Below the pieces are notes generated by a model. It was given only the letters and a program-made list of their open reading frames with translations. It was not told the origin of the DNA and did not search any database. The position numbers and the translations under genes were made by a program. DNA of 32,000 nt, from contig CAZPUN010000020.1 of NCBI GenBank assembly GCA_964589775.1, positions 30,001 through 62,000 on the forward strand, written 5' to 3'. The stretch is from an uncultured archaeon. GTDB taxonomy: Archaea; Asgardarchaeota; Thorarchaeia; Thorarchaeales; CAZPUN01. This document shows positions 24,994-28,000 of this stretch, piece by piece. Within the stretch, counting starts at the first letter, position 1, and every line of letters starts with the position of its first letter.

Positions 24994-25953
24994 ATGAGTA
25001 GTGAAAAAACACTTATTACACCGCTATTAAAAATTATGAATTCAATAATGGAGATTATAGACCCAGAACAAAATGAACAGTTCGTAATTTTAACAGAAAA
25101 AAACATTGACAAGGCAAGCTTAGAGATCTTATTGAAAGAGGGATTATTATTAAGAACCCAATCAGAATCATACAAGGCTAATTTATCAGGAATAGTAAAA
25201 AAGACCCTGAAAATTATTGAGATAATGTACGATAATGACATAAAAGAACCTAACGAAAAAAAGAAACTTAGGGATTTATCAATCGAATATAGCAAACAAG
25301 CAGCTGCGATAATCCACACTTTTATCGACAAGCATATAATAAATGAAAGTTTAATCAATATTCTACTAAATTTCGAAGACCTAACACATGCAATCGAAGA
25401 ATTACAAGGATATAAGGACCAACTTACGGTCGCAGGATATTATGTAAAACTAAGTGATGGAACATATAAATTCAATATGTCTTCTGATTTAATAGACGTA
25501 ATAGAAAAGTGCAATGTGCAAATTGATTATGTATCCACATTAATTGAAGAATACATGAATAGGGTAATAGAAATAGAAGATGCATTAGACAAATATCCAC
25601 GGTCTATTAAAAAGATTGATGATAAACACATTCAAATAACACTCACAGATTATGTTATCACAAAGGACCATCCATATTATGCACAATATGTTATGTTACT
25701 ACAAGAAAATCTTGACGACATTGAAAATGCGGTTAAAAACAAATATGTTGAACTACAAAAGAATCATGAGATATTACAAGATATCATTCCAACATTAAAA
25801 GAAATATTGATAACTGATGATCGCTTTATTGAAATAGTTTCAGATAACATGTATGCAAATCTCATAAAATTACGAGATTCACACTTTACATTTCTAAATA
25901 AAATGGAAATAATATTAGAGCATGTTGCAGAGATAAAAAATACATACAATTAA
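24994..25953 (+). CDS. Hypothetical helical protein
   Basis: 319-aa ORF with no recognisable catalytic motif; C-terminal coiled-coil character. Confidence 0.75.
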   Translation: MSSEKTLITPLLKIMNSIMEIIDPEQNEQFVILTEKNIDKASLEILLKEGLLLRTQSESYKANLSGIVKKTLKIIEIMYDNDIKEPNEKKKLRDLSIEYSKQAAAIIHTFIDKHIINESLINILLNFEDLTHAIEELQGYKDQLTVAGYYVKLSDGTYKFNMSSDLIDVIEKCNVQIDYVSTLIEEYMNRVIEIEDALDKYPRSIKKIDDKHIQITLTDYVITKDHPYYAQYVMLLQENLDDIENAVKNKYVELQKNHEILQDIIPTLKEILITDDRFIEIVSDNMYANLIKLRDSHFTFLNKMEIILEHVAEIKNTYN

Positions 25954-26981
25954 CTTAATTTACAATTCAATGCAGACCATAATGCATCAGTGTCAGGACG
26001 TACCAAATATTCAGATTTCCCATTTTTAATTAAGATTCTTTCGTTTGGATCGTCAAGAATAACGCCAATAATATCTGCAGGTATTCCATTTTTATTCAAT
26101 ACATCAACAATATTTTTTGCTAATTCATTCTTAGCAACAATAAGAAGAGCTCCACTACTAATGAGTTCCAGTGGATTAATATTAAGCAAATTACAAATCA
26201 TTTTCGTCTCTTCTGCGATTTTTAATTTTTCAAAATAAACTTTAAATCCAACTTCGGATGCATCTGCAAGCTCATGCAGCGCATTTGATATACCACCCTC
26301 AGTAGGATCGTGCATTGCAACAACTCCACCGGTTTGATATGCCAATACACCATCATTTACAACACTAACGTATTTGCGAAATGATTTTGCACTTTCAACA
26401 ATAGAACGTGGTAAGTGGTCTAGTAGAAGTGATTCACATTCCTCAGCAATTATTGCAGTGCCTTCAATACCAACAGATTTTGTAAGAATTAATACATCAC
26501 CTGCTTTTGCACCTGAAGAGGTTACAAATTCATTGTGACTGGTCTCGCCAATCATGGTACCAATAATAATGGGCTGCTCTAAGAAATCAGTGACTTCAGT
26601 ATGACCACCAATAATGAAAATACCCAATTCACCAGCAGCTTTTCGGATTTGCGAAACAATAATATTTAGCATGTCCTCCGTTGATCTTTTAGGCAGCAAA
26701 ATTGTAGTAAGCATCCATTTAGGTCGAACTCCATGTGTCGCAACATCATTTGCATTTATATGAACAGATAACCAGCCAATACTTTTGATTGACCCAGTTA
26801 TAGGATCTGTTGTAATTATAAGATCTCGGTCTGAAATCCGTATTATAGCCGCATCTTGTCCTAGTGCAGGTCCTACAATCACATTTTCATCATTAATTGG
26901 CAAATTGTTGAAGACGACTTTTGTGAGAATCTCTGGCGGAACCTTTCCAGGAAGAAGATATTTTTCCATTTTAGACTTCAC
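25950..26981 (-). CDS. AIR synthase-related (PurM/HypE-like) family protein
   Basis: GKVPP, GQDAA, TTDPIT, NANDVA, GGHTE, MHDPTEGG, ISSGALL. Confidence 0.88.
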   Translation of the reverse strand: MKSKMEKYLLPGKVPPEILTKVVFNNLPINDENVIVGPALGQDAAIIRISDRDLIITTDPITGSIKSIGWLSVHINANDVATHGVRPKWMLTTILLPKRSTEDMLNIIVSQIRKAAGELGIFIIGGHTEVTDFLEQPIIIGTMIGETSHNEFVTSSGAKAGDVLILTKSVGIEGTAIIAEECESLLLDHLPRSIVESAKSFRKYVSVVNDGVLAYQTGGVVAMHDPTEGGISNALHELADASEVGFKVYFEKLKIAEETKMICNLLNINPLELISSGALLIVAKNELAKNIVDVLNKNGIPADIIGVILDDPNERILIKNGKSEYLVRPDTDALWSALNCKLS

Positions 26982-26998
26982 TCCCTACTAGGTACGGG

Positions 26999-27099
26999 TG
27001 CGTGCCACTTTGTTCCTGCTCATGAGACAGAATATCATCGTATTCAAATGAACTCTCAATTCTGCACTATGAGAGCTAGGAAAATACAAGTGGCACGCA
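26999..27099 (-). ncRNA. Putative H/ACA pseudouridylation guide RNA (single hairpin with K-turn) inside an extra 12-bp outer stem
   Basis: Minus-strand fold: lower stem UCCU(A)GCUC/GAGCAGGA followed by ACA (27011-27013); pocket UCAUAGU/CUCAU; upper stem GCAGAAU/AUUCUGU; U.U pair, tandem G.A/A.G pairs and 3-nt GAU bulge (K-turn); ACA begins 14 nt from the pocket top; outer inverted repeat 26999-27010/27088-27099. Confidence 0.75.
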
Positions 27100-27160
27100 A
27101 TTCAAATATGGAAAAGTTAATTTAAAGATTGTCTATAAAGACATACGAGGGAGAATTAAA

Positions 27161-28000
27161 TTGAACGACCAAGTAAAAATTGCACTAATTGGAGGTTCTG
27201 GCTTATATCATTTAATTGAGAATCCTAAAATTACTATTTTAGATACACCATGGGGCAAGTCTCCACGTATTGATATTGGGTACATTGGGATACATAAAAT
27301 TGCATTTGTATCGCGACATAGTAAACCTGGAGTGTCGGATAAACAGACGCACGCTGTACCACCGCATATGGTAAATTATAAGGCATATATTTATGCATTA
27401 AGACAATTAGGTGTTGAAAGAATTATTGCGACTACGGCAGTAGGTTCATTAAACAAAAAAATTAAACCGGGTGATTTCGTCATCTTAGATCAGTTAGTTG
27501 ATTTTACGAAAAGAAGAAGCTACACATTTTTTGACGGAACAGTACCTATAGAAGTTGAACCAAATAAGATAATCAATGGCGTCGCACATGTTGATTTTAC
27601 TGAACCATATTGCCCAGAAATCCGAACTGCATTAATTGAAAGTTGCAAATTACAAAACATAAAGTGTCATACAAGTGGAACATATGTAGCAATGGAAGGT
27701 CCACGTTTTGAAACTAGAGCCGAAGTAAAATTACTTTCGTCATGGGGAATGGATGTAGTAGGCATGACACAATCGCCAGAAGCAATATTGGCACGCGAAT
27801 TAACCATGTGCTATGGGGTTGTATCAATTGTAACAAACTATGCCGCAGGAATAAGTAACCAGAAAATCACGCATGAAGAAGTTGTTGAACTATTTAATCA
27901 AAAAATGAAAGATTTAAAAAGTATTATACAAAATGCGATTAAACTCATTCCAGAAGAAAGAAATTGTACGTGCAAAAGTGCTCTCGATGGTGCTCAATAG
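27161..28000 (+). CDS. mtnP: MTAP-family purine nucleoside phosphorylase (MTA/MTI or 6-oxopurine phosphorylase)
   Basis: IGGSG, SRH, PPH, AVGSL, EGPRFET, VVGMT, VTNYAAG. Confidence 0.92.
   Translation: MNDQVKIALIGGSGLYHLIENPKITILDTPWGKSPRIDIGYIGIHKIAFVSRHSKPGVSDKQTHAVPPHMVNYKAYIYALRQLGVERIIATTAVGSLNKKIKPGDFVILDQLVDFTKRRSYTFFDGTVPIEVEPNKIINGVAHVDFTEPYCPEIRTALIESCKLQNIKCHTSGTYVAMEGPRFETRAEVKLLSSWGMDVVGMTQSPEAILARELTMCYGVVSIVTNYAAGISNQKITHEEVVELFNQKMKDLKSIIQNAIKLIPEERNCTCKSALDGAQ

Follow-up and report, generated by a model that had tools for sequence, protein, structure and literature searches.

A candidate H/ACA-type guide RNA for helix 69 of 23S rRNA, enclosed by an outer helix at the head of an AIR-synthase-family gene in an order of Asgard archaea

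In bacteria, pseudouridines 1911, 1915 and 1917 of 23S rRNA are made by the protein-only synthase RluD, and U1911 is the nucleotide predicted as the target of the archaeal RNA described here. RluD is a stand-alone enzyme that works with no guide RNA, whereas the site of the archaeal RNA would be chosen by base pairing. Cbf5-dependent guides for the loop of helix 69, the predicted target region here as well, have been described in Haloferax volcanii (stem-loop 2 of sR-h45) and S. islandicus (sR148) (PMC7075261, PMC11077068). These guides make the equivalents of E. coli 1915 and 1917 (and of yeast 2266), whereas the present RNA would position U1911 and hold 1913-1919 inside the guide duplex; the 1915/1917 equivalence has been confirmed (bioRxiv 10.1101/2024.02.02.578723). 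[quoted passage not shown]

The closest relatives in architecture are the classic single-hairpin archaeal H/ACA sRNAs, represented by Pf9/Pab91 of Pyrococcus (fold codes 10/5/9 and 10/6/9) and by sR115 and sR435 of S. islandicus, which share with the present RNA a GA stem of 10 layers, an ACA at guide spacing after the lower stem, and a bipartite rRNA complementarity that leaves UN unpaired (PMC4652768, PMC11077068). In comparison with these, the fold code is 10/5/8, one base short; the ACA is not on a free 3' tail but within an internal loop that a conserved helix of 12-14 bp closes off; and the RNA appears to start an mRNA in place of being a stand-alone gene, and matches no Rfam family. Internal hairpins of the Pab40/Pf7 type and the eukaryotic H box likewise have an ANA box followed directly by another helix (PMC7075261), but there that helix belongs to the next guide hairpin, whereas in the present RNA the strand after the ACA returns to pair with the 5' end, and the helix surrounds the very hairpin to which the ACA belongs.

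The RNA occupies positions 26999-27099 on the minus strand of the 32,000-nucleotide stretch of DNA that was analysed (the window), which comes from contig C20 of a 2.16-Mb archaeal assembly of 35% G+C, the host genome. Its closest named protein homologues are in keeping with an Asgard archaeon of Thorarchaeota type. It is 101 bases long, RNA base i being window coordinate 27100-i, and sits in a divergent intergenic region of 179 bp, in which the upstream divergent gene encodes an MTAP-type phosphorylase. The original prediction of an H/ACA-type hairpin on this strand was borne out base for base, and the features of the locus, in the order in which the RNA would be read, are these:

27119-27126, minus strand: TATA-like box TTTAAATT, 20-27 bases upstream of RNA base 1
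27088-27099, minus strand: 5' strand of the outer clamp helix P0, UGCGUGCCACUU, 12 of 12 bases paired with the 3' arm
27081-27087, minus strand: 5' linker GUAUUUU of the internal loop between P0 and P1, facing the ACA; length kept, sequence variable
27073-27080, minus strand: P1a, 5' strand of the lower stem, CCUAGCUC, with a bulged A; from sequence and fold
27066-27072, minus strand: 5' guide strand of the pocket, UCAUAGU, complementary to A1913-A1919 of 23S rRNA
27059-27065, minus strand: P2a, 5' strand of the upper stem, GCAGAAU; from sequence, fold and covariation
27034-27058, minus strand: K-turn module (5' U-GA, C-stem with AUUU loop, GAU bulge, 3' GA-U); from sequence, key bases invariant
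27027-27033, minus strand: P2b, 3' strand of the upper stem, AUUCUGU; from sequence, fold and covariation
27022-27026, minus strand: 3' guide strand of the pocket, CUCAU, of which CUC can pair with G1908-G1910 of the host's own 23S rRNA
27014-27021, minus strand: P1b, 3' strand of the lower stem, GAGCAGG, plus one spacer A; from sequence, fold and covariation
27011-27013, minus strand: ACA box, beginning at the 14th base after the upper stem, with 13 bases between the two and P0 directly after it
26999-27010, minus strand: 3' strand of the outer clamp helix P0, AAGUGGCACGCA; from sequence, fold and covariation
26970-26998, minus strand: linker to the start codon, beginning with a conserved CC and containing the Shine-Dalgarno-like GGGAGUGA; from sequence
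25950-26969, minus strand: gene for an uncharacterised AIR-synthase-superfamily protein of 339 aa (Pfam AIRS and AIRS_C)

The lower stem, CCU(A)GCUC/GAGCAGG, has 7 pairs and one bulged A, and the upper stem, GCAGAAU/AUUCUGU, has 7 pairs with a G.U pair at its base; the K-turn consists of a U.U pair, tandem G.A/A.G pairs, a 3-base bulge (GAU), a short C-stem and an AUUU loop. Minimum-free-energy folding recovers the same anatomy (-40.1 kcal/mol, z = -5.5; none of 200 shuffled sequences folded equally well). In the DNA the arms of P0 form a palindrome, so the plus strand comes close in score (z = -5.1), and folding energy alone therefore cannot pick the strand. Evidence for the minus strand is of three other kinds: the ACA and the K-turn are correct only in this reading; the basal G.U pair of the upper stem is invariant (44 of 44 sequences), where the other strand would have C.A; and the orientation of the RNA with respect to the downstream gene is constant across relatives.

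Given that the host genome is the sole representative of its own family among the reference genomes, a BLAST search of the RNA against 60 relatives returned chance fragments only, the two inspected being coding sequence, and a covariance model built on the single sequence (R1) found nothing in the order under strict filters. Relatives were reached by synteny. The protein most similar to the product of the neighbouring gene, at 72% identity, is encoded in GCA_053994715.1, and that genome has the RNA in the same place (locus L031); R1 recognised L031, and weakly a further locus, L033, once synteny had supplied both. The L031 RNA is 91% identical to that of the host, with P0 arms that match at 24 of 24 positions, as compared with 62-66% identity in the flanks and 51% at third codon positions of the gene; it replaces the U.U pair beside the tandem G.A pairs by C-G. 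Genomes of a sister family carry a more diverged version of the RNA, again just upstream of the orthologous gene. A second covariance model, R2, built from 14 sequences, found exactly one copy in 75 of the 87 genomes of the order, representing 16 of 17 genera, and in genus g4 the AIR-synthase-family gene is present and the RNA was not found. When 124 genomes were sampled across 25 further families of the phylum, the same model recovered no copy under strict filters, a result that is not proof of absence.

Pairing was counted in 44 distinct sequences aligned to R2, an alignment that is itself fitted to the model: 92% of the cells of all modelled pairs are paired, and both partners change in 26 of 33 pairs. 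In a control in which partners were slid by 1-3 columns, 23-52% of cells are paired. The outer 12-bp stem, already proposed from the single sequence, is real and is the best-supported helix of all by covariation, with 11 of its 13 modelled pairs changed on both sides and 96% of cells paired across the 44 sequences. Likewise, double-sided changes occur in 7 of 8 pairs of the lower stem, 5 of 6 of the upper stem and 3 of 6 of the C-stem. A MAFFT alignment, which is not fitted to structure, still gives 88% paired and 16 pairs with double changes; on it RNAalifold predicted only P0 and a pairing of the invariant AUGA with UCAU, and the H/ACA structure was tested explicitly instead.

The bases that do not vary are those expected to matter in an H/ACA RNA. 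K-turn columns G50, A51, G52, C71, A73, U74, G75 and A76, comprising the tandem G.A pairs, the closing G-C and two bulge bases, are invariant in all 44 sequences, as is the ACA; CAUAGU of the 5' guide is found in 43-44 of the 44, and UCAU of the 3' pocket strand never varies. The host and L031 have C as the first base of the 3' guide and 13 bases from the upper stem to the ACA; the 42 sister-family sequences have U at that position, and a spacing of 14-15 bases. The 5' linker facing the ACA has 7 bases in 35 of 44 sequences and is variable in sequence. The outermost U-A pair of P0 is unpaired in 7 of 44 and changed to G-C in two, and the helix termini UGCGC/GCGCA, together with the CC after P0, are conserved in sequence and not in pairing alone. 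It had been allowed at the outset that relatives might show neither covariation nor a conserved ACA, K-turn and pocket; these three parts are invariant in them, and the stems covary. The minus-strand element is a real, conserved and structurally proven RNA with H/ACA hallmarks.

How closely it conforms to the class is a separate matter. No Rfam family, the curated H/ACA families such as HgcE/F/G and those of Pyrococcus included, reached its gathering threshold anywhere in the window, and 26900-27200 gave only chance-level hits (E > 2), which agrees with the claim that a structured RNA of H/ACA architecture had gone unannotated here. The lower stem, two-strand pocket and upper stem of an H/ACA guide are all present and supported by covariation. 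At the level of sequence, the second G.A pair forms the 10th layer above the pocket (7 pairs, U.U and two G.A), and crystal structures, like 14 of the 15 productive folds of P. abyssi, have a GA stem of this height (PMC4652768). [quoted passage not shown] For the interval from the upper stem to the ACA a rule of n+15 ± 1 has been given (PMC7075261), and productive P. abyssi folds have 14-15 bases (PMC4652768, PMC2377435); the 13 bases of the host RNA lie inside the former and are one short of the latter. The ACA is not on a single-stranded 3' tail, since the 3' strand of P0 follows it directly, and the RNA is therefore called an H/ACA variant and not a plain member of the class. Cbf5 (460 bits), Nop10, Gar1 and L7Ae are all encoded in the host genome.

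A first genome scan with an H/ACA descriptor of our own was too loose and missed the RNA owing to its bulged A; in a second version the RNA is the clear best candidate, and since that scan did not recover other guides of the host, it affords no comparison of clamps across guides. Several other identities were considered and set aside. A repeat or MITE was rejected, the 12-base P0 arms and their 9-base cores being unique in the genome and the RNA being present in one copy per genome across the order. A bulge-helix-bulge RNA was rejected in view of the uninterrupted 12-bp helix of P0, its unpaired flanks and a 5' end that coincides with the putative transcription start, and a tRNA-like gene because ARAGORN finds none. 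A second K-turn in the loop between P0 and P1 was dropped, as tandem G.A pairs are impossible there. A genome-wide habit of clamping was likewise discarded: perfect, GC-rich inverted repeats with arms of 10 bp or more, 40-200 bases apart, number only 24 in the genome, and the 11 others that were inspected are not H/ACA-like.

To our knowledge, an outer helix such as P0 is not known from described H/ACA RNAs, and its role has to be approached through its effect on folding. In partition-function folding of the leader with 90 bases of mRNA across 44 sequences, the mean probability of the lower and upper stems was 0.64 with P0 and 0.28 without it, and in the host genome that of the guide helices fell from 0.94 with P0 to 0.00 without. 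We read P0, on the strength of these modelled ensembles, as a likely folding clamp and insulator that would keep the guide fold intact inside an mRNA. By tying the native 5' end to the 3' boundary it would shield the guide fold from downstream mRNA, and after cleavage or decay of the message it probably serves, in addition, to set the ends of the small RNA and to protect them. The conserved 7-base linker might let the ACA swing out to the PUA domain of Cbf5 with P0 staying closed. The enclosure of the ACA also counts against the guide reading, as Cbf5 is not known to bind such a layout.

The TATA-like box lies at -27 to -20 from RNA base 1, and the sister family has a conserved CTCGATTA-GTTATTAGC block at the same distance, with TTATTA at -27 to -22 from the 5' end of the RNA. 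The usual archaeal spacing from TATA box to transcription start would thus place the start at or next to RNA base 1, the first base of P0. [quoted passage not shown] Co-transcription with the downstream gene is therefore more strongly supported than had been proposed, by the conserved TATA box as well as by the lack of a second promoter or T-tract. The description of that gene as PurM-like has to be revised: its product scores below every NCBIfam equivalog cut-off (HypE, for example, 129 bits against 252), and is therefore not PurM, HypE, ThiL or SelD, but a member of the AIR-synthase superfamily.

[quoted passage not shown] Among 46 leaders the RNA ends 22-38 bases ahead of the start codon, in an interval that carries the ribosome-binding site, and in eleven same-contig pairs that were compared, 21-27 bases separate its end from the residue at which the alignment of the gene begins. 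Whenever RNA and gene share a contig, the RNA is directly upstream of the same AIR-synthase-family gene. Thermodynamic prediction also gives a weak leader hairpin in which the CC after P0 pairs with GG within the ribosome-binding site; 30 of the 46 leaders have the first C bases paired in their minimum-free-energy fold, and the hairpin, at -2 to -8 kcal/mol, is missing from about one third.

The host's own helix 69 reads GGGAG-UA-ACUAUGA-CUCUC, and so contains the ACUAUGA on which the original prediction depended. The 5' guide forms 7 Watson-Crick pairs with A1913-A1919 and CUC of the 3' guide pairs with G1908-G1910 (E. coli numbering), such that both strands are paired, there are at least 8 pairs, and a U and one further base, U1911 and A1912, are left free. 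The 3' guide stops after these 3 pairs at an A.G mismatch, in which the invariant A of UCAU always faces G1907. Only 5 of 3000 random pockets achieved ten Watson-Crick pairs on the host rRNAs, although once G.U pairs count, a site with 10 pairs turns up for about 10% of them. No site other than helix 69 is shared by the 23S sequences of all relatives. Of the other arrangements tried, a 6+6 site occurs in two of the 23S sequences from genus g9 and is missing from a third, and placing the 3' guide on AUGAG (1916-1920), with U1921 as target, leaves the 5' guide partnerless.

The sister family complicates this picture. Its helix 69, read via the Rfam rRNA model, has C1910-G1920 in all 11 of the 23S sequences read, where the host has G1910. 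All 42 sister-family guides keep U facing C1910, an uncompensated mismatch next to the target, unlike the canonical pair that the host guide C forms with the host G1910. With the usual G1910, the sister-family U would wobble. Pairing by the 3' guide is reported to be more important than pairing by the 5' guide, and a P. abyssi motif whose 3' side had 4 weak pairs was inactive (PMC7075261, PMC2377435). On the other hand, more than 2 bases may stay unpaired in a pocket, a total of 8 pairs can be enough, and bulges and mismatches do not keep one S. islandicus guide from working (PMC7075261, PMC11077068); given this tolerance, the sister-family guides may still work. The assignment to U1911 thus survives in part: the 7+3 Watson-Crick pairs with U1911 and A1912 free speak for it, whereas the mere 3 pairs of the 3' guide, the 13-base ACA spacing and the sister-family mismatch speak against it. 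Judged from complementarity, a U1911 target in helix 69 is plausible in the host genome and about half secure.

Taken as a whole, the element is probably a single-hairpin, K-turn box H/ACA-type guide RNA that forms the first 101 bases of an AIR-synthase-family mRNA and targets U1911 of helix 69, with P0 as a folding clamp. The structure, its conservation, its place in the transcript, the complementarity to the host's own rRNA and the presence of the four protein genes were observed. That the proteins bind and a pseudouridine is made, and what P0 does and becomes, we infer, taking archaeal H/ACA particles of known structure as the model for the mechanism. [quoted passage not shown]

This reading has to be weighed against others that account for some of the same facts. 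The RNA is an obligatory 5' leader in every genome that has it, a weak predicted hairpin brings together the ribosome-binding site and the conserved CC next to P0, and the 3' pocket strand is invariant yet suboptimal for helix 69 and mismatched in the sister family; all of this would suit a mainly cis-acting leader on which L7Ae, and perhaps Cbf5, controls translation or stability of the AIR-synthase-family mRNA and no pseudouridine is guided, and a regulatory role of H/ACA-like RNAs has been proposed earlier (PMC4652768). However, a protein platform needs no invariant 7-base complement of helix 69, nor UA at the top of the pocket, a guide-spaced ACA or a 10-layer GA stem, and the hairpin itself is weak and absent from about a third of leaders; a purely cis-acting role seems unlikely. 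Greater doubt attaches to a guide for some other RNA, be it a tRNA, a small RNA or an mRNA. Such a target is suggested by the start codon of a small Lrp/AsnC-like gene on host contig C59, where AUGAG-UG-ACUAUGA is a perfect 5+7, 12-pair match to both pocket strands, by the shortcomings of the helix 69 match on the 3' side and in the sister family, and by the S. islandicus guides that act on several RNA classes with bulges and mismatches (PMC11077068). One perfect site is nonetheless near chance expectation for the genome size (estimated at about 0.1). Moreover, an order-wide pattern search of 87 genomes for a non-rRNA target found no conserved target and no recurring homologous locus, but only about 107 unrelated coding sites, typically Met-Ser-Asn-Tyr-Asp-like starts, as against about 55 for the reversed control, whereas helix 69 is shared by all relatives; we hold another target to be improbable.

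A different alternative retains the guide and reinterprets the clamp. P0 may be a processing handle on a precursor, cut by an endonuclease (perhaps a tRNA-end enzyme that recognises an acceptor-like minihelix) or opened, with a free ACA tail as the outcome; among described archaeal guides, function has been demonstrated for this layout alone (PMC7075261, PMC4652768). The sequence conservation of UGCGC/GCGCA and of CC, beyond pairing alone, and the unpaired outermost U-A in 7 of 44 sequences are in keeping with such a handle. Yet a transcription start at base 1 would make the 5' strand of P0 a native end that needs no processing; neither a bulge-helix-bulge motif nor, with ARAGORN, a tRNA-like gene is found; the change of the outermost pair to G-C in two sequences fits pairing and not a discriminator base; and CC is equally explained by pairing with the ribosome-binding site. 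Covariation along the whole 12-14 bp helix and the conserved 7-base linker fit a P0 that coexists with the guide fold, and processing through P0 appears quite unlikely. Guide and leader functions might also be combined. In a rather unlikely variant, the guide RNA would double as a cis switch, the assembly of H/ACA proteins on the nascent leader deciding, by way of P0 and the hairpin at the ribosome-binding site, whether a guide particle, a translatable mRNA or both arise. If this is true, expression of the unknown enzyme would depend on how ribosome biogenesis stands, and the RNA would be the first known guide acting inside an mRNA leader with a helix-enclosed ACA.

The preferred reading, that of a guide RNA with P0 as a folding clamp, has implications for H/ACA biology and for ribosome modification. 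Described H/ACA guides have their ACA on a free tail or before the next hairpin, whereas an order of Asgard archaea keeps it in a loop closed by a covarying helix. This layout poses a structural question, how the PUA domain of Cbf5 reads an enclosed ACA, and a question of biogenesis, how a guide RNA arises from the first 100 bases of an mRNA. Asgard archaea are close relatives of eukaryotes. If the target is right, the RNA would represent an RNA-guided route to a helix 69 pseudouridine that bacteria make with RluD. Pseudouridine maps of H. volcanii and S. islandicus do not report the position equivalent to 1911 (PMC7075261, PMC11077068). Further, the link across the whole order between the guide and one uncharacterised AIR-synthase-family gene provides a starting point for the function of that enzyme. 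Finally, the R2 covariance model is clean, with one match per genome, and can be used for annotating this RNA family.

The 23S rRNA of the genome that carries the RNA (G000) is interrupted next to the very helix that the guide is predicted to address.

Contig C23, 101409-102208 (= locus L089, 3558-4357): 800-base insert in 23S rRNA, directly after helix 69.

The junctions read ...ACUAUGACUCUC / insert / UUAAGGUAGCC. Within the inserted sequence lies the gene for a LAGLIDADG homing endonuclease of 197 aa (PF00961, 61 bits), and only 5 bases separate the splice site of the insert from the predicted guide-binding site. None of the 11 sister-family 23S sequences read has an insert at the helix 69 site. 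In all 11 of these (L090-L100) the helix 69 closing pair is flipped to C1910-G1920 (GGGACUAACUAUGAGUCUC); the 23S rRNA of G000 has the usual G1910-C1920.

Both pocket strands find a perfect complement elsewhere in G000.

Contig C59, 7826-7839, minus strand: AUGAG-UG-ACUAUGA, a perfect 5+7 complement of both pocket strands.

This match overlaps the start codon of an ORF (locus L064, 785-1036, minus strand; 83 aa) that, by eye, we take to be Lrp/AsnC-like. As a guide target the site was judged a chance match because no homologous site recurs in any relative. Within the sister family, genus g4 (L060 of genome G004; genomes G003 and G013) carries the AIR-synthase-family gene, and its helix 69 sequence is the same; at the thresholds used the RNA was found neither upstream of that gene nor elsewhere in the genus. 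Stretches enclosed by a helix in the manner of P0, the 12-bp outer helix of the RNA, are rare in G000; five others, of 85-108 bases, whose closing helices are perfect, GC-rich and 11-14 bp long, are not H/ACA-like.

Contig C47, 1895-1979: helix-closed stretch.
Contig C26, 21962-22048: helix-closed stretch.
Contig C37, 42681-42787: helix-closed stretch.
Contig C27, 31556-31663: helix-closed stretch.
Contig C54, 11804-11897: helix-closed stretch.

Two genes flank the RNA and the AIR-synthase-family gene downstream of it.

Window 27161-28000, plus strand: MTAP-type phosphorylase gene, divergent, starting 62 bases from the RNA.
Window 24994-25950, plus strand: 319-aa ORF, convergent to the AIR-synthase-family gene.

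The 319-aa ORF has no Pfam or NCBIfam match, and at the equivalent position the locus with the closest homologue of the AIR-synthase-family protein (L031) has a gene that is about as long (323 aa) and likewise lacks a Pfam hit. The gene order Na/Ca exchanger, MTAP, RNA, AIR-synthase-family gene is kept in L031. Between the MTAP gene and the RNA lies a nearly palindromic box, TTTAAATT/AATTTAAA, which may serve both directions. [quoted passage not shown]
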